IMG/VR virus record: IMGVR_UViG_3300046167_000321
Coordinates: 1-53,379 of that record
DNA length: 53,379 nt
Direction: 5' to 3' (one strand)
Source of the DNA: a virus
Taxonomy: Duplodnaviria; Caudoviricetes
Below the pieces are notes generated by a model. The model was not told the origin of the DNA, did no database searches, and saw nothing but the letters and a program-made list of their open reading frames with translations. A program made the translations under genes and the position numbers. Below are positions 1 through 53,379 of the stretch, piece after piece; positions within the stretch are counted from its first letter, which is position 1; each line of letters starts with the position of its first letter.

Positions 1-779
1 TGCTGCATCACACGTTTGATTGTGCGGCCAGCCATCCCGGCCTCTTCCAATGCCAGCTCGGCCTCGGCTGGGTTGATCTCATTAAGCGCCCAGCGCTGCC
101 AGATGCTCACACGCTCTTTGAACCGCTCGGCCTCGGCTGTCACGAATGCTTTGACCTTGTTAGGATTGAACCCGGAAGTGTGGCGGAATACTGAAGTTTC
201 GAATTCGCCAAACGTCATCCCATTGTCGCAATACCAATCAATGGCCCCGGCATTACAGCGGATCGATGTTCCGCCGAAACCATTGACCACAGCAACCCGG
301 AATTTCAGGGAAGTGCTGCGCCCGGTAAGCTGGCGAATGTCTGCGCCGATCTCAGGAAAAGAATATTCAAACCGGGTAAAACGGCCATTGCGGCTGATGC
401 TTTCCCGCAGCTCGATGTTCTGCAGCGCTCGTGTAGGCAGCGCAGCCTCGCAGCCCTCGGCCAGTTTGGCGGCCAGATCCCCGTTCTGTGCTATTGCGTA
501 CCGTTCACCTACTACACCCAAGGCAGCCAGATTATCTGTGCGGCGGATCAGGCGGCCCACATTCTCAGGAACCCCGGAGAATTCCCCGTGGTGGGTGTCG
601 GTCCCGTTCATCTCATGAAACAGCTCGACAGCCTCGGCTGTGAACCCGGTTTGATCGAGCGCAGGAAACAGGCGGCGCATTGCCGGGCTTGGCTGCTCGG
701 CCTGTTGGCGTTCATGCAGCTTCTGAGCCAGCGAAATAATTTCAGGTGAAAGGTGGCTTAAATTTGTGAAAGTGTTCAT
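1..779 (-). CDS. DUF932/DUF945-like phage early protein, N-terminal part (runs off window start; not in ORF track)
   Basis: Manual translation from ATG 779 (RBS TAGGAG): MNTFTNLSH...RRTDNLAALGVVGERYAIAQN...VVNGFGG...WYCDNGM...FRHTSG...KRVMQ, open to position 1; motifs typical of DUF932. Confidence 0.8.
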   Translation of the reverse strand, partial: MNTFTNLSHLSPEIISLAQKLHERQQAEQPSPAMRRLFPALDQTGFTAEAVELFHEMNGTDTHHGEFSGVPENVGRLIRRTDNLAALGVVGERYAIAQNGDLAAKLAEGCEAALPTRALQNIELRESISRNGRFTRFEYSFPEIGADIRQLTGRSTSLKFRVAVVNGFGGTSIRCNAGAIDWYCDNGMTFGEFETSVFRHTSGFNPNKVKAFVTAEAERFKERVSIWQRWALNEINPAEAELALEEAGMAGRTIKRVMQ

Positions 780-799
780 TTGGTCATTCTCCTAGTTAG

Positions 800-863
800 T
801 GGCCTGTCTCATCAGTGCAGGGTGGCCATTGTCTGCAGACCGGGGCGCTGCCCCGGTTTCGAC
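800..863 (-). ncRNA. Type II hammerhead ribozyme with loop I pseudoknot (HHR-1)
   Basis: Minus strand: gtc-GAAA-C-cgggg(cagcg)ccccg-GUC^-tgcag(acaatggccacc)ctgca-CUGAUGA-gac-aggcca. Complete core and stems I-III; loop UGGCC pairs with tail GGCCA; predicted cut between 838 and 837. Confidence 0.92.
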
Positions 864-1481
864 TTAGTGATTAAACAGCCTTGCCCAGAAACCCCGGCCC
901 CGGCATTCGGCCAGACGCTCGGCCATCATTGTAATTTGATCCTCGGCCCGTGCTCGATCAGCCTCTGCCTCTTCCCGGCGCAGATATTCCTGATGCGCTT
1001 CGTTCTGCCATTTGTTGGCTATGCTGGGATCATTTAACCGGGCAATGGCTGCGGCCTCGTTTAGCTGGGCATTGGCCAGATCATGCCGGGCCTCATCCCG
1101 CTGCGCTTCCATAGATTTGCGCCCGGCCTTCTGGCCCTCATAGCTTTCTTCTAAAATGGCCAAACGATTGTTGGCAAAATTTAATTGTGCCTCGGCCTCG
1201 ACTAAACGCCGGGCCAGATCGTTGCGATCCTTCCGGGCTGATACCAGCTCGGCCCGATATAAAGAATGCACCGGGGCGGATGCTTTCAGGATCTTGTAAA
1301 TGGTGGGGATCGATACAGCGTAACTGTCAGCAATTTCTGCCACAGATGCACCGCCTTGCCTTGCCGATCTAATAGACGGGCCGTTAGCCCATGCCACCGC
1401 TGTCTTTTTAGCAACCCATTTTGTAGGGGCTTGGATGGTGTCGAAATTGTTGGCAAATCCTTTGAGTGTGATCTTGTTCAT
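864..1481 (-). CDS. HTH + coiled-coil protein with C-terminal amphipathic GFWARLF tail
   Basis: ARQGGASVAEIADSYAVSIPTIYKIL resembles a resolvase/Hin-type HTH; long heptad region; RBS TAGGAG. Confidence 0.7.
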   Translation of the reverse strand: MNKITLKGFANNFDTIQAPTKWVAKKTAVAWANGPSIRSARQGGASVAEIADSYAVSIPTIYKILKASAPVHSLYRAELVSARKDRNDLARRLVEAEAQLNFANNRLAILEESYEGQKAGRKSMEAQRDEARHDLANAQLNEAAAIARLNDPSIANKWQNEAHQEYLRREEAEADRARAEDQITMMAERLAECRGRGFWARLFNH

Positions 1482-1529
1482 TTGGTCAGTCTCCTAGTTA
1501 AAATTTGAACAGGCCTCCGGCCCTGCCCC

Positions 1530-1559
1530 CTCTTAACATCCATTTGGTGGGCTTGGCAA
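1530..1559 (-). promoter_or_regulatory. Putative sigma70-type early promoter
   Basis: Minus strand TTGCCA-18-TAAGAG with AT-rich upstream tract, followed by a GC hairpin leader and the RBS of 864..1481. Confidence 0.5.
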
Positions 1560-1588
1560 CACTTTATTAAATCAGGAAACAGAATAGC

Positions 1589-3036: not shown

Positions 3037-4128
3037 ATGAAGAGACACTATAAGTATATGCAAAAGGTCAAACTGAAACACGGTATGATCTGGGTCATCA
3101 ACCCATCGAAGGCAGTCAGGAAGGCGCTGGGCGTTGGGTACGAGAAGTACGATACATATCAAGAGGCCAAAGAAAGATCAGTTCAGATAGAGTTGGCCTT
3201 CGATGATTACAAAAGAACACAGCGTCCTACTAAGAAGCTGCACATAGAGGAAGACACAGTGGATTCACTGTTTCAGTTCTACACCAGCCGGGATGCATTC
3301 CAGAGTCTGTCTGAAAACAGCAAGAGAACGTACAGGTTTCTGTACAAGACAGCATCTGATCTGCGTATAGGTCAGTCCAACATACCATTTGGGCGCATGC
3401 TTATTAAAAGTGTGAATGCTAAGACTGCAGACGATCTGTTCTTAACACTGAGAACAGAGAAGAGTGATCATCGTGCCAATAGTGTGGTCAAGGTTCTTCG
3501 TAGAGTATGGTTCGTAGGCCGTAGAGGTATCTTAGGTGATGGTGCATCTAATCCATTCCAACAGATGGGCCTAAAGAAGCTAAACATCAGGCGCACAAGA
3601 TGGATGCCCGAGGACGTGGATGCATTTGTGTCTAAAGCAGATGAACTAGGCTATCAGTCTATAGGTACACTAGCCCTGTTATGCTATGACCTGTGCCAAA
3701 GGCCCGGAGACATGCGTAAGATGGTCTGGGGTAACTTCGATGGTGAGGTCTTTGCCTTCACTCAGGAGAAGACAGAAACTCCACTGACACTAGAATTATC
3801 TCCACGCCTCAGTAATCGGTTTGCTGATATAGTACGAGGCAAGGATGATGAATACATCGTCAAGTATGAGGCCACAGGTAGGCCATACGACATGCGTATG
3901 TATGCCAAGGTGGCACAGCATGTAAGAACCAAAGCCAAGTTAAGCTCCGATCTACAGATCAGGGATCTTAGACGCAGCGGAGCCACAGAGATGGGTGAGG
4001 CTGGATGTACTGAGGATGAGATTGCCGCAGTCACTGGCCACACATCACGCCAAATGCTTGAAATATACGTTAACCCTACACGGAAGATAGCTTCCCGGGG
4101 AATGCAGAAGAGGTGGCAGAATGCATGA
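3037..4128 (+). CDS. int: Tyrosine recombinase / integrase
   Basis: Catalytic set: CQRPGD (R), QEKT (K), RDLRRSG, TGH, IY; attP-like tRNA fragment 1 kb downstream. Confidence 0.9.
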   Translation: MKRHYKYMQKVKLKHGMIWVINPSKAVRKALGVGYEKYDTYQEAKERSVQIELAFDDYKRTQRPTKKLHIEEDTVDSLFQFYTSRDAFQSLSENSKRTYRFLYKTASDLRIGQSNIPFGRMLIKSVNAKTADDLFLTLRTEKSDHRANSVVKVLRRVWFVGRRGILGDGASNPFQQMGLKKLNIRRTRWMPEDVDAFVSKADELGYQSIGTLALLCYDLCQRPGDMRKMVWGNFDGEVFAFTQEKTETPLTLELSPRLSNRFADIVRGKDDEYIVKYEATGRPYDMRMYAKVAQHVRTKAKLSSDLQIRDLRRSGATEMGEAGCTEDEIAAVTGHTSRQMLEIYVNPTRKIASRGMQKRWQNA

Positions 4129-4430: not shown

Positions 4431-5110
4431 TACAAGTAACATATAAAGACCACATGGGTTCAGATCTATCAGTTGTGAATGCAGCTCGTGTATCGTTTGG
4501 CAAGGAGAGGAAGGCATTAGGGTACACCAGCATTGGCGGTGGTCCTAGTATTCCTGTAATCCATGATACAGATAAAAACCTGATAAAATATCTAGCAGAT
4601 CATAGGCATATGTCTCCCTTTGGTCATGCCTTTGCATCTTTCCATTGTCGTGTGCCTTTGTATGTACACGCTCAGTTAGAGAAGCATAAGTTCCTGCGAG
4701 TTAATACCATCAGCCGCCGCTACGTTGATAGTACACCTGACATCTATATGCCTAATCCTTTCCGCTACAAGGCTAAAGACAAGAAGCAGGGAAGCACAGG
4801 CAATGCTAACAAGGCAGTGATGCATGATGGGTTTGATCAACGTCTGGCTGAACACATGGATCAATCTAAAGAGTTATATCAGGAGATGATTGATCGTGAT
4901 ATAGCTCCTGAGTTGGCCCGAGGGTGGCTGCCTCAGGCTACCTTCACTGAATTTATCTGGTCAGGAAGCCTCGATGCATTTTCTGATATGTGCAAACTAA
5001 GATGTGCTAATGATACTCAACTAGAATCTCGCATGGTTGCAGATGAGATATCAATGAAGATGGAAGAACTGTTTCCTGTGTCTTGGGAATCATTAATAAA
5101 TAGCTATTAA
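4427..5110 (+). CDS. thyX: Flavin-dependent thymidylate synthase
   Basis: GSDLSVVNAARVSF, H.SPF.H, KH...N..SRRY, APELARG.LPQ, LR....TQ.E motifs. Confidence 0.93.
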   Translation: MIQVTYKDHMGSDLSVVNAARVSFGKERKALGYTSIGGGPSIPVIHDTDKNLIKYLADHRHMSPFGHAFASFHCRVPLYVHAQLEKHKFLRVNTISRRYVDSTPDIYMPNPFRYKAKDKKQGSTGNANKAVMHDGFDQRLAEHMDQSKELYQEMIDRDIAPELARGWLPQATFTEFIWSGSLDAFSDMCKLRCANDTQLESRMVADEISMKMEELFPVSWESLINSY

Positions 5111-51282: not shown

Positions 51283-51998
51283 TGGCGCATGTCCGATCTA
51301 AACCGGAGAATAACGTCATCTTAACCTACATATTGTACCCGAGTCAATAGCTAGGTGTTATATACGGTGCTCTCATCCACACTTTGTTGACATTTACAAC
51401 CAATATAATCCCAGAATAACCACGAGGGCTTTGACATTCCTGTAGGCTGGTCCATACCCCGGCTCTATTTACAGTGCTTAAATTCCAATCTCGGGTAGGG
51501 TTTGTATACGAGTACGGGTACCCCCCCGGGTGGCACTCGCCCCGGCCCGGATCAGCCCGAAACCCGTTAAAAGCATGGCCGAAACCCCTTGTTTGTATGG
51601 TTTTTCTGGGATCGATCCCGTTTTATGTTGGCTGTTCTGTTAACTGTTAGTTATCCGCCCCGACAACACGCTGTAGCACCCTATCCCCCCGGGGTGCGGT
51701 GGCCGATTGCTGCCCTGCAGAATATCTTGACGGGATTATAAAACGGGCGGAGGCGTCCCGGTTGAGCACCAAACAAACACCAGTAGGAACCCCGGCCAGA
51801 TCCTATCCCTGATCGATCACACACCCGGGCATTGTCTCAGCCTCGATCCCGTGCAGATCCGCCCTCGATCCGGGGCGCTGTTCCTGTGTGCCTCTGTGCT
51901 GCGTTTTAAGAGGCCATAAAGACACCTAGCTAACCTGCCCTACCGGGCGGAATAGATCACCCCTCTGTGCGTGGCTCTGTGTGGCTCTCAGGCATAAG

Positions 51999-52025
51999 AA
52001 AAGGCCCGGGGGTTAACCGGGCCTC
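51999..52025 (-). terminator. Intrinsic terminator of early operon
   Basis: Minus strand aggcccgg-ttaacc-ccgggcct-tttctt. Confidence 0.8.
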
Positions 52026-52050
52026 TGACGTTGCTTTGTGGTGGTGGCTG

Positions 52051-52266
52051 TTAGCTGTGTGTGTACCCGTCCGCCTCGATGGCCAGCCACATGCCGGGAA
52101 CCTGAACCACCACAGCATCATCCATGCCAAAGGTGCTTTTCACATCCCGGCGGAATTCCCGGTAAGATCCGGTCAAACCGGGGCGGCTGCCGTTGCTTTC
52201 ATGCCAACGCTGCCAGACCGCATAAACGGCCCGGCGCTGCGCTTTGGTGAGTTGAACCCCGGCCAT
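52051..52266 (-). CDS. Conserved small phage early protein
   Basis: MAGVQLTKAQRRA...SYREFRR...GMWLAIEADGYTHS. Confidence 0.7.
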   Translation of the reverse strand: MAGVQLTKAQRRAVYAVWQRWHESNGSRPGLTGSYREFRRDVKSTFGMDDAVVVQVPGMWLAIEADGYTHS

Positions 52267-52267
52267 C

Positions 52268-52762
52268 TTACCAGCTCGCCTGATAGTGAACGCTGCGCCA
52301 TTGTGCATGCGATCCGCTGGGGTGCTTTGGTGAAGCCTCGAGCCACCGGGCGGCTGCCCGGATCTTGTCCGCATGCTGTGCAGCCTCGGCCCGGTATTCA
52401 TCCCAGCCCTCACCTGATCCAAAAAAGAACCCACCACAATCATCATTAGATGGCAGGGCATCATCAGTTAAGGCCACGGCGATCTTTTCCAGATCATCCT
52501 CATCCAGACAGATCCGCTGGCATTCATCCACACCCTCGGCAAAGGTCTTCACGATGTATTCATGCAGCGGTGCAAACTTGCGCCAATAGCCCAGCTCGTG
52601 CTGGGTGCTGCAAACAGGCTCACCATCATCATCAACAGGCTTGCCCAGTGCACGGGCCTCTTCGAAGCTCGGGCGTTCTTTCCCGGCCTCATATTCATCC
52701 TGCAGGGTTTTATAATCTGGCACGAAATACTTTTCGCCTGAAAGGTACATATCCAATCCCAT
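52268..52762 (-). CDS. Conserved phage early protein (MGLDMY...YWRK...GFFFG...YQASW family)
   Basis: Characteristic motifs, RBS GGGGGA. Confidence 0.8.
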   Translation of the reverse strand: MGLDMYLSGEKYFVPDYKTLQDEYEAGKERPSFEEARALGKPVDDDGEPVCSTQHELGYWRKFAPLHEYIVKTFAEGVDECQRICLDEDDLEKIAVALTDDALPSNDDCGGFFFGSGEGWDEYRAEAAQHADKIRAAARWLEASPKHPSGSHAQWRSVHYQASW

Positions 52763-52776
52763 GATCTTATCCCCCC

Positions 52777-53112
52777 TTATGCTGCTATGCAGCCATCAGC
52801 CCGGGCGGCTGCGGCATACTGTGAAATAGTTTTATCAGCGGTGAAATACATATCCCGCTCGATCCCGATCCCCAGCGGCCCCTGTACTGCTTCCAGCTCT
52901 GTGATCGATACGCTGCCCAGCTCCGGGGAACCCATGCCCAGATCACACAGGCCGAAAGCAATATCGCCCTCGATCTCGGTCAGCAGCCACGTTGCAGCCC
53001 CGGCAGGATTAAAGAGCTTTACCACCGGGCGGTGATCGTCTTCGCCTTCAATCTCAGTCTTCCGGGCGTTTGCCTCGAGCTTCGTGCGGATCTCTTTTGT
53101 GATTAGTTTCAT
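52777..53112 (-). CDS. DUF2958 family protein
   Basis: PVVKLF.P.GAATWLLTE...FGLCDLG.G.PELG.VS..EL.......IERD..F. Confidence 0.88.
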   Translation of the reverse strand: MKLITKEIRTKLEANARKTEIEGEDDHRPVVKLFNPAGAATWLLTEIEGDIAFGLCDLGMGSPELGSVSITELEAVQGPLGIGIERDMYFTADKTISQYAAAARADGCIAA

Positions 53113-53133
53113 TTTGGTCAGTCTCCTAGTTAG

Positions 53134-53202
53134 TGGGCTGTCTCATCAGTGACCCTTGCCCAAGGTGGCCAGACGCCCGGGGATTAGCCCGAGCGTTTCG
53201 AC
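53134..53202 (-). ncRNA. Type II hammerhead ribozyme with loop I pseudoknot (HHR-2)
   Basis: Minus strand: gtc-GAAA-C-gctcggg(ctaatc)cccgggc-GUC^-tggcc(accttgggcaag)ggtca-CUGAUGA-gac-agccca; loop UGGGC pairs with tail GCCCA; predicted cut between 53172 and 53171. Confidence 0.92.
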
Positions 53203-53203
53203 T

Positions 53204-53379
53204 TTATGCAGCCATGCCGATCCGGGCCATCGCTGGGTGGCTTATGATCTGGCCCACCTCACGCTCCCGGCGATCTAATACCTCGGCCACGTTGTCGATG
53301 TTCGAGCTGTTACGAACCGGGAACAATTCGCTATTGTGGCTCGAGCGCTGTGTGAGCGCTGAATATACGGCCCACGTTG
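53204..53379 (-). CDS. DUF932-like protein, C-terminal part (continuation of 1..779)
   Basis: TWAVYSALTQRSSH...GMAA-stop; W..Y.A.T...H is the usual DUF932 C-terminal motif. Confidence 0.75.
   Translation of the reverse strand, partial: TWAVYSALTQRSSHNSELFPVRNSSNIDNVAEVLDRREREVGQIISHPAMARIGMAA

Follow-up and report, generated by a model that had tools for sequence, protein, structure and literature searches.

The locus described here raises the question of what two self-cleaving ribozymes do between the first genes of a phage operon, and whether, as the first-pass annotation of this DNA proposed, they excise the mRNA of the one gene that lies between them, a DUF932 gene. The window, i.e., the whole stretch of DNA analysed, is 53,379 bases long and is spanned entirely by one IMG/VR record, classed as "linear" with an estimated completeness of 99%. 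A tblastn search of cultured phages with the DUF932 protein matched seven records, the close ones being CRP-3 and CRP-212, whose hypothetical proteins are 91.9% and 70.8% identical, respectively, to the window protein; searched alongside, plasmids gave no match and 185,579 species genomes none. The window phage is a CRP-3-like, HMO-2011-type temperate roseophage, a marine phage of Roseobacter, and CRP-3 itself is an HMO-2011-type podovirus whose integration site is the host tRNA-Met gene (Zhang et al. 2019, from the part of that paper covered here). The record ends (1-3 and 53377-53379) interrupt the DUF932 gene, from which about 12 codons (about 32 nt) are absent by comparison with the 328-aa protein of the relative L006, and the direct terminal repeats of L006 sit elsewhere in the L006 genome; the assembly of the window record is permuted and has a small gap. 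The circular map on which the excision proposal relied holds in substance, although the record is classed as linear and lacks these codons at its ends.

When the whole window was compared with all 4227 Rfam families, a single match was obtained at the gathering threshold, to RF02276 (Hammerhead_II), and we refer to this element, running from 864 to 798, as HHR1 (37.7 bits, gathering score 37, E = 3.8e-4). The second element, HHR2, running from 53203 to 53132, matches the same family with 34.8 bits, under the gathering score of 37, and surfaced with E-value reporting rather than at the Rfam gathering threshold (E-values of 2.2e-3 over the whole window and 2.4e-5 locally). Besides these two, no Rfam match at E≤1 was found in the window. 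The elements and their predicted cleavage sites are as follows.

798 to 864, minus strand: HHR1, type II hammerhead between gene X and the DUF932 gene; RF02276, 37.7 bits, full model 1-66
53132 to 53203, minus strand: HHR2, type II hammerhead between the DUF932 and DUF2958 genes; RF02276, 34.8 bits, full-length model
837 to 838, minus strand: predicted HHR1 cleavage site, after C838, leaving 837 as the new 5'-OH terminus; located by counting to GUC (C17)
53171 to 53172, minus strand: predicted HHR2 cleavage site, after C53172, giving a new 5'-OH end at 53171; counted on the sequence

Both copies were parsed outward from the catalytic core (anchored parsing). CUGAUGA, CGAAAC and GUC are present in each, in keeping with a conserved core defined by CUGAUGA, GAAA, an A15.1-U16.1 pair and a cleavage-site residue other than G, and in each the three-way junction has loop-capped stems I and III and an open stem II. 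In HHR1, stem II is GUC/GAC (3 bp), stem III is ACCGGGGC/GCCCCGGU (8 bp) with C17 at the cleavage site, stem I is UGCAG/CUGCA (5 bp), and loop I forms a pseudoknot with the 3' tail, UGGCC/GGCCA (5 bp). HHR2 has the same 3-bp stem II, GUC/GAC, a stem III of 9 bp with a sequence unlike that of HHR1, again C17, a 5-bp stem I with one G-U pair (UGGCC/GGUCA), and a 5-bp pseudoknot, UGGGC/GCCCA. The copies thus differ in stem sequence yet stay paired, with the pseudoknot changed on both sides, as the first-pass annotation had observed; a loop I/3' tail pseudoknot of at least 4 bp, found in both, is also the majority feature in Perreault et al. 2011. The new 5' ends that had been put forward, 837 and 53171, are the ones obtained by counting to C17 on the sequence, and these predicted positions follow from the hammerhead mechanism. 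Stop-codon adjacency and a ribosome-binding site after each ribozyme were likewise borne out: a TAA stop (866-864) abuts stem II of HHR1, at 0 nt, another (53206-53204) lies 1 nt from stem II of HHR2, and GGAG follows 6 nt past the pseudoknot in HHR1 and HHR2 alike. The minimum-energy fold computed without pseudoknots pairs loop I with the tail and leaves stem I unformed, so that misfolding is possible.

Chance resemblance was assessed with the core pattern GAAAC..GTC..CTGATGAG, which matches the window exactly twice, at HHR1 and HHR2, compared with a mean of 0.05 matches in shuffled sequences (n = 100), none of which (0/100) contained two or more. It is scarcely credible that the two elements are chance matches or inactive relics: the score of HHR2 below the Rfam cut-off would fit such a view, but the E-values, the shuffle control, the full core, the covarying stems and pseudoknot and the conservation in cultured CRP-3 and CRP-212 all weigh against it. 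Judged by sequence and predicted structure, HHR1 and HHR2 are genuine type II hammerheads with predicted self-cleavage, complete, with intact cores, at the coordinates that the first-pass annotation had given; they are on the minus strand, the one that is coding here.

The ribozymes interrupt an operon whose minus-strand order, from ORFs and Pfam matches, is the one originally claimed: leader, gene X, HHR1, DUF932, HHR2, DUF2958, two ORFs without a family, and a hairpin.

1482 to 1568, minus strand: conserved leader with promoter-like TTGCCA, 17 nt, TGTTAAG, and a GGCC-GGA-GGCC hairpin (alignment A4)
864 to 1481, minus strand: gene X, 205 aa, first cistron, weak HTH (ORF)
3 to 779, minus strand: N-terminal 259 codons of the DUF932 gene, running off the record start; PF06067, 28.5 bits, cut-off 23
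53204 to 53377, minus strand: C-terminal 57 codons and stop of the DUF932 gene, from the record end; matches the C-terminus of the 328-aa L006 protein
52777 to 53112, minus strand: DUF2958 gene, 111 aa; PF11171, E 9e-42
52268 to 52762, minus strand: 164-aa ORF without a family; homologues in L005 and L006 (family F12)
52051 to 52464, minus strand: last operon ORF, at most 137 aa, with a probably later true start; relatives have homologues (family F5)
51993 to 52026, minus strand: terminator-like 10-bp hairpin followed by UUUUCUU; fold -20.6 kcal/mol, z -2.67
777 to 799, 1479 to 1501 and 53111 to 53133, minus strand: translation-initiation motif CTAACTAGGAGAATGACCAAATG, 23 nt; three matches with at most 3 mismatches
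3037 to 4128, plus strand: tyrosine integrase (Pfam scan of window ORFs)

The leader is kept in the window, L007, L006 and CRP-3 (alignment A4). The promoter and terminator of the first-pass annotation are supported by this conservation and by the folded hairpin with its UUUUCUU, but neither is listed by simple scans: the consensus scan returned no promoter at the leader, which is read as one by eye, and the terminator scan did not return the hairpin on the minus strand. The HTH assignment of gene X finds a weak match to HTH_23 (E 0.0025, Pfam) that is sub-threshold, at 18 bits against a cut-off of 24.6. Gene X is 49% identical (E 1e-50) to the L006 gene downstream of DUF932, and the N-terminal DUF932 piece is 91% identical to its L006 counterpart. 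The CTAACTAGGAGAATGACCAAATG motif precedes three operon genes, where 0 occurrences are expected by chance (100 shuffles). Neither PHROGs nor NCBIfam gave a function for any operon gene, and the titles and abstract openings of the DUF932 literature hold nothing on function; we infer from position only that the operon genes are early. Outside the operon, the plus strand carries, in addition to the integrase, genes for ThyX, a DnaB-like helicase, a family A DNA polymerase, MazG and ribonucleotide reductase, and the minus strand those for terminase, portal, lysozyme and tail proteins. Between the operon terminator and this structural module, about 750 nt (51283-52050) have no convincing ORF; no tRNA gene was found in this stretch, which could harbour attP or regulatory sites.

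Whether the bracketing of DUF932 is a stable trait was judged against five IMG/VR relatives (L003-L007) and the cultured phages CRP-3 and CRP-212, using Rfam plus the anchored parse. The window and its relatives hold 14 hammerheads in total, which occur in the window and in 6/7 relatives: two each in the window, L006, CRP-3, L004 and CRP-212, three in L005, one in L007, where the contig ends, and none in L003. All 14 have a complete core and a 3-bp stem II; stem III measures 5-11 bp, stem I 5-7 bp and the pseudoknot 4-6 bp, and each of the 14 is a coding-strand element preceded by a stop codon and followed by a ribosome-binding site. Stem sequences are of at least six different kinds, with pairing preserved, and the intact cores together with the compensatory changes in stems and pseudoknot indicate selection on catalysis. 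In CRP-3 (MK613345, L128) the two copies are at 2273-2344 and 2920-2995, and in CRP-212 (MZ892988, L129) at 2289-2354 and 3039-3114; the GenBank records of both phages annotate CDS only and leave the hammerheads unannotated. Among distant DUF932-like loci, those of MJing1, CRP-1, HMO-2011 and CRP-345 gave no hammerhead by Rfam (E≤1) or parse.

The value of the parse is illustrated by L005, where a complete hammerhead at 3920-3985, with stem II UUC/GAA and a UUCG-capped stem III, was found by pattern and parse and missed by two Rfam-based scans at E≤1; Rfam silence is therefore weak evidence of absence, and for this reason our own parse was added. An alignment of eight hammerhead copies (MAFFT plus RNAalifold) yielded a poor consensus structure because stem lengths differ, and anchored parsing was used instead. 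In L004, the stretch upstream of DUF932 (3890-4003) contains a CGAAAC word without CUGAUGA and could not be parsed as a hammerhead; either a degenerate ribozyme or coincidence may account for it.

These relatives do not support DUF932 as the excised unit. A ribozyme lies downstream of DUF932 in 6/7 records having that flank and upstream of it in 3/8 records, and, among the seven records with both flanks readable (the window and six relatives), DUF932 is bracketed in two only, the window and L005. Gene X is the bracketed gene in L004, L005, L006, CRP-3 and CRP-212, and L003, with a DUF932 protein 83% identical, has no hammerhead by Rfam or parse; its gaps at 3940-4000 and 4985-5035 contain plain GC-rich hairpins at the same intercistronic positions, and the ribozymes are thus dispensable for the operon. 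The search for synteny that the earlier proposal invited therefore gave a divided answer, with intercistronic hammerheads in 6/7 relatives but a different bracketed gene and a permuted order. As compared across these records, the conserved trait is a hammerhead in the gaps separating the first cistrons, rather than the excision of DUF932.

The permutation itself is instructive. In alignment A4, the window and L007 read leader-X-HHR-DUF932-HHR-DUF2958, whereas L006 and CRP-3 read leader-DUF932-HHR-X-HHR-DUF2958, and the family map places DUF932 before X also in L004, L005 and CRP-212. The stretches that differ in X/DUF932 order behind one leader are 864-1481 plus 3-779 in the window and 4001-5634 in L006. 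Read from the alignment, this difference is a cassette swap at joints formed by ribozyme and ribosome-binding site. HHR1 shares 87-90% identity with the DUF932>X junction ribozyme of L004, L005 and CRP-212 (e.g., L129 2289-2354) and 70-78% with ribozymes downstream of gene X elsewhere (e.g., L006 5634-5712), while HHR2 is 94% identical to the CRP-3 ribozyme downstream of DUF932; at the level of nucleotide identity, ribozyme similarity does not track position. These observations raise the alternative that ribozyme and shared ribosome-binding motif act chiefly as a recombination joint or hitch-hiking module, one that shuffles early cassettes and is itself spread by the shuffling, with little benefit from cleavage. 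Both gene orders behind one leader (X-DUF932 in the window and L007, DUF932-X in L006, CRP-3, L004, L005 and CRP-212), the closer resemblance of HHR1 to ribozymes of the opposite junction than to those after gene X, the 23-nt initiation motif repeated at three gene starts and the patchy presence, with none in L003, are all compatible with it. We nevertheless hold it to be unlikely, since a passive repeat would decay, whereas every core nucleotide is kept in 14/14 copies and substitutions in stems and pseudoknot are compensating.

The reading that we prefer is that two functional type II hammerheads probably cut the minus-strand operon transcript, of six cistrons, at two intercistronic gaps. 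Hammerhead cleavage leaves 5'-OH and 2',3'-cyclic phosphate ends. Transcription would start at the conserved leader, near 1568, and end at the hairpin near 52000, and each ribozyme would fold once its own 3' tail had been synthesized, with stems I and III as hairpins, stem II held by GUC/GAC only, and the loop I/tail pseudoknot keeping stems I and II parallel. Each would then cleave after C17, which should yield three products: (i) a gene X RNA ending about 30 nt past its stop codon in a 3' stem III hairpin with a 2',3'-cyclic phosphate; (ii) a DUF932 RNA of about 1077 nt, beginning with a 5'-OH, the stem I hairpin and a pseudoknot located 6 nt before GGAG and ending in the second stem III hairpin; and (iii) an RNA for DUF2958 and the two ORFs, from a 5'-OH through the terminator. 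Since the type II topology puts a hairpin at both new ends, these RNAs could withstand both 3' exonucleases and 5'-monophosphate-dependent decay, and such shielding would uncouple the stability and translation of the individual cistrons. That the ribozymes cut in vivo, that the products resist exonucleases and 5'-monophosphate-dependent decay and that the cistrons are expressed independently are predictions from established hammerhead chemistry and what is established for bacterial mRNA decay.

The case for cutting is made by the Rfam matches, the chance controls and the intact cores in all 14 family hammerheads; against it stand the score of HHR2 under the gathering threshold, the ribozyme-free L003 and a promoter and terminator that consensus scans miss. 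With real hammerheads in the gaps of one same-strand operon, self-processing is the natural reading, and this part of the original interpretation stands. Its novelty does not, the idea having been described in 2011 for prophages: Perreault et al. 2011 (PMC3088659) reported clustered prophage hammerheads that flank single genes and proposed that they process mRNA to gene length, so that operon self-processing by hammerheads is a re-derived published hypothesis and not a new one. In the parts of that paper covered here, the expected cleavage was seen in vitro for three tandem prophage arrangements and in E. coli too for the one from Agrobacterium tumefaciens, the identity of the flanked gene was not constant, and disruption of the pseudoknot reduced activity 20- to >100-fold; in view of this cost, the kept pseudoknot argues for selection on speed. 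Their clusters, such as the triple ardA arrangement of A. tumefaciens, resemble the present locus in being type II with a loop I/3'-tail pseudoknot and in having several coding-strand copies within 1-2 kb that flank single genes near an integrase. The window likewise has two close coding-strand copies, HHR1 and HHR2, about 1.08 kb apart around the single gene DUF932, and an integrase. The setting differs in host group and phage type, being a marine HMO-2011-type roseophage of the CRP-3 subgroup, and it is DUF932 and gene X that are flanked. Three type II hammerheads of Desulfovibrio vulgaris cleave in vivo, as shown by cyPhyRNA-seq (Olzog et al. 2021, PMC8782182, in the part covered); those adjoin hypothetical and phage-like genes and release 5' fragments of about 30 nt, compared with 27-32 nt from stem II to C17 here. 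They differ from HHR1 and HHR2 in that they lie at three separate loci, none bracketing one gene, as far as that part of the paper goes, and in that their cleavage is experimentally demonstrated.

Two further systems offer functional parallels, one a natural protein-based counterpart and the other an engineered use of hammerheads. The early polycistronic mRNA of T7 is processed by RNase III, a host protein enzyme that leaves 5'-phosphate and 3'-OH ends. Intercistronic cuts and hairpins at the ends of gene-length RNAs are shared with that system (as predictions here), but the roseophage RNA is predicted to cut itself and to leave 5'-OH and 2',3'-cyclic phosphate ends. Insulators of the RiboJ type are engineered from a satellite-RNA hammerhead of another topology. 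As with RiboJ, a hammerhead before a ribosome-binding site would remove the upstream RNA context and leave a hairpin-led 5'-OH leader, although the element described here is natural and of type II.

A stronger version of the excision proposal holds that the DUF932 RNA, once released, is circularised into a translatable mRNA by host RtcB or by a reverse hammerhead reaction, and if this is true, a phage would possess a circular protein-coding RNA made by ribozymes. The end chemistry fits, as 5'-OH and 2',3'-cyclic phosphate ends are substrates of RtcB. The architecture fits as well: the halves of a type II hammerhead meet only via stem II, and with GUC/GAC in both HHR1 and HHR2, the 5' half of HHR2 at one end of the released RNA could pair with the 3' half of HHR1 at the other to reconstitute a full hammerhead. 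We consider circularisation very unlikely for several reasons: (i) spliced or circular products of hammerhead clusters, although regarded as conceivable, were sought and none was detected (Perreault et al. 2011, in the sections covered); (ii) the bracketed gene varies, with DUF932 in 2/7 records, gene X in others and no ribozyme in L003; (iii) in L005 and CRP-3, no more than 2 bp would form in the hybrid stem II; and (iv) a Pfam scan of 60 window ORFs found no RNA ligase or RtcB domain. The review by Weinberg et al. 2019 (PMC6765202, seen in part) describes hammerhead-bounded circular RNAs, viroids and retrozymes, which, like the DUF932 segment, are units bounded by two hammerheads and have ligatable ends on release. 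Those, as described there, are eukaryotic non-coding or retroelement RNAs with identical repeated ribozymes; in the roseophages, unlike viroids and retrozymes, the two flanking ribozymes differ from each other, the RNA between them is a bacterial-type mRNA, and relatives do not keep the same bounded unit, DUF932 being bracketed in 2/7.

Self-cutting of the operon could be subject to translational control. In 14/14 family hammerheads the upstream stop overlaps stem II by 1 nt or lies at most 3 nt before it, so that a terminating ribosome would occlude the ribozyme, covering stem II together with the GAAA core strand and the 5' arm of stem III. Cleavage would then occur mainly when the upstream cistron is poorly translated, the ribozyme sensing ribosome traffic, a possibility compatible with operon self-cutting. 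The same spacing was examined in a wider sample, obtained by a core-pattern scan of IMG/VR with a strict pattern (stem II ending UC/GA) that returned at least 120 unrelated phage loci (L008-L127); along a profile of six diverse DUF932 proteins, conservation was everywhere too low for a locus scan. The matches listed comprise 144 distinct ones, 121 of them with an upstream ORF (at least 40 codons) ending nearby. For 104 of the 121 among the matches listed, the upstream stop falls 0-6 nt before the stem II "UC", against 229/1018 random positions, a control in which intergenic spacers as such are not modelled. The stop is never inside the ribozyme, and there is no overlap with coding sequence in these 121; among the matches listed, the next gene usually starts 15-35 nt past CUGAUGAGA.

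That ribozymes abut the upstream stop suggests, as a hypothesis, that cleavage is coupled to translation. As an account of this spacing, gating by the terminating ribosome strikes us as improbable: phage genomes are compact, the downstream side is equally tight among the matches listed, and tight packing alone may explain the distance between stop and ribozyme. The stop-codon rule itself appears to be new, the term being missing from the covered parts of Perreault et al. 2011 and nothing relevant appearing in the literature searched.

The wider sample also speaks to structure and to gene neighbourhood. Among the matches listed, 109/191 candidates have a pseudoknot of at least 4 bp, compared with a mean of 31.75 when tails are swapped. 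As pairs 1-3 of each stem are canonical by construction of the parse, only pairs 4-5 are informative, and among the matches listed these are canonical in 171/191, 169/189, 181/191 and 184/190 cases. Few neighbours have a Pfam name, and those that do, among the matches listed, are mostly anti-restriction genes (ArdA, ArdC, DarA_C) and DUF932: the 123 downstream ORFs include DUF932 three times, ArdA twice, ArdC once and a phi29-type SSB twice, and the 117 upstream ORFs ArdA three times and ArdC, DarA_C and DUF932 once each, counts that are small, lack a baseline of gene-family frequency and include some genes both upstream and downstream. The loci with Pfam-named neighbours among the matches listed are L014, L035, L043, L061, L065, L068, L084, L113 and L127. 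In L043, from an unrelated phage, a DUF932 gene is bracketed by two hammerheads. The prevalence of anti-restriction genes and DUF932 among the named neighbours in the matches listed suggests, again as a hypothesis, a role in early counter-defence operons.

With regard to novelty, hammerheads in HMO-2011/CRP-3 roseophages appear to be new, as no mention of ribozymes was found in the literature on the group, and the link between hammerheads and DUF932 appears to be new as well, no pairing having been found in a literature search outside which lie the Roth 2014 and Weinberg 2015 gene lists and the figures and supplements of Perreault et al. 2011. The roseophage hammerheads add a good example and nothing categorically new. 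The 2019 review (Weinberg et al., PMC6765202), in the part covered, repeats the processing idea and calls the role unresolved; with the role of bacterial and phage hammerheads still open there, the roseophage case is a convenient test bed. The same ribozymes occur in the cultured temperate roseophages CRP-3 and CRP-212, for which a cultured host exists, strain FZCC0040 in the case of CRP-3, making the system tractable, and the natural relatives offer built-in comparisons, with three, two or no ribozymes and swapped gene order. Multiple copies are also seen beyond this group: at least 18 of the 120 listed loci have two or more matches within the fetched stretch, and in L065 (8125-11316) eight hammerhead pattern matches lie within 3.2 kb, after nearly every small gene, including ArdA.
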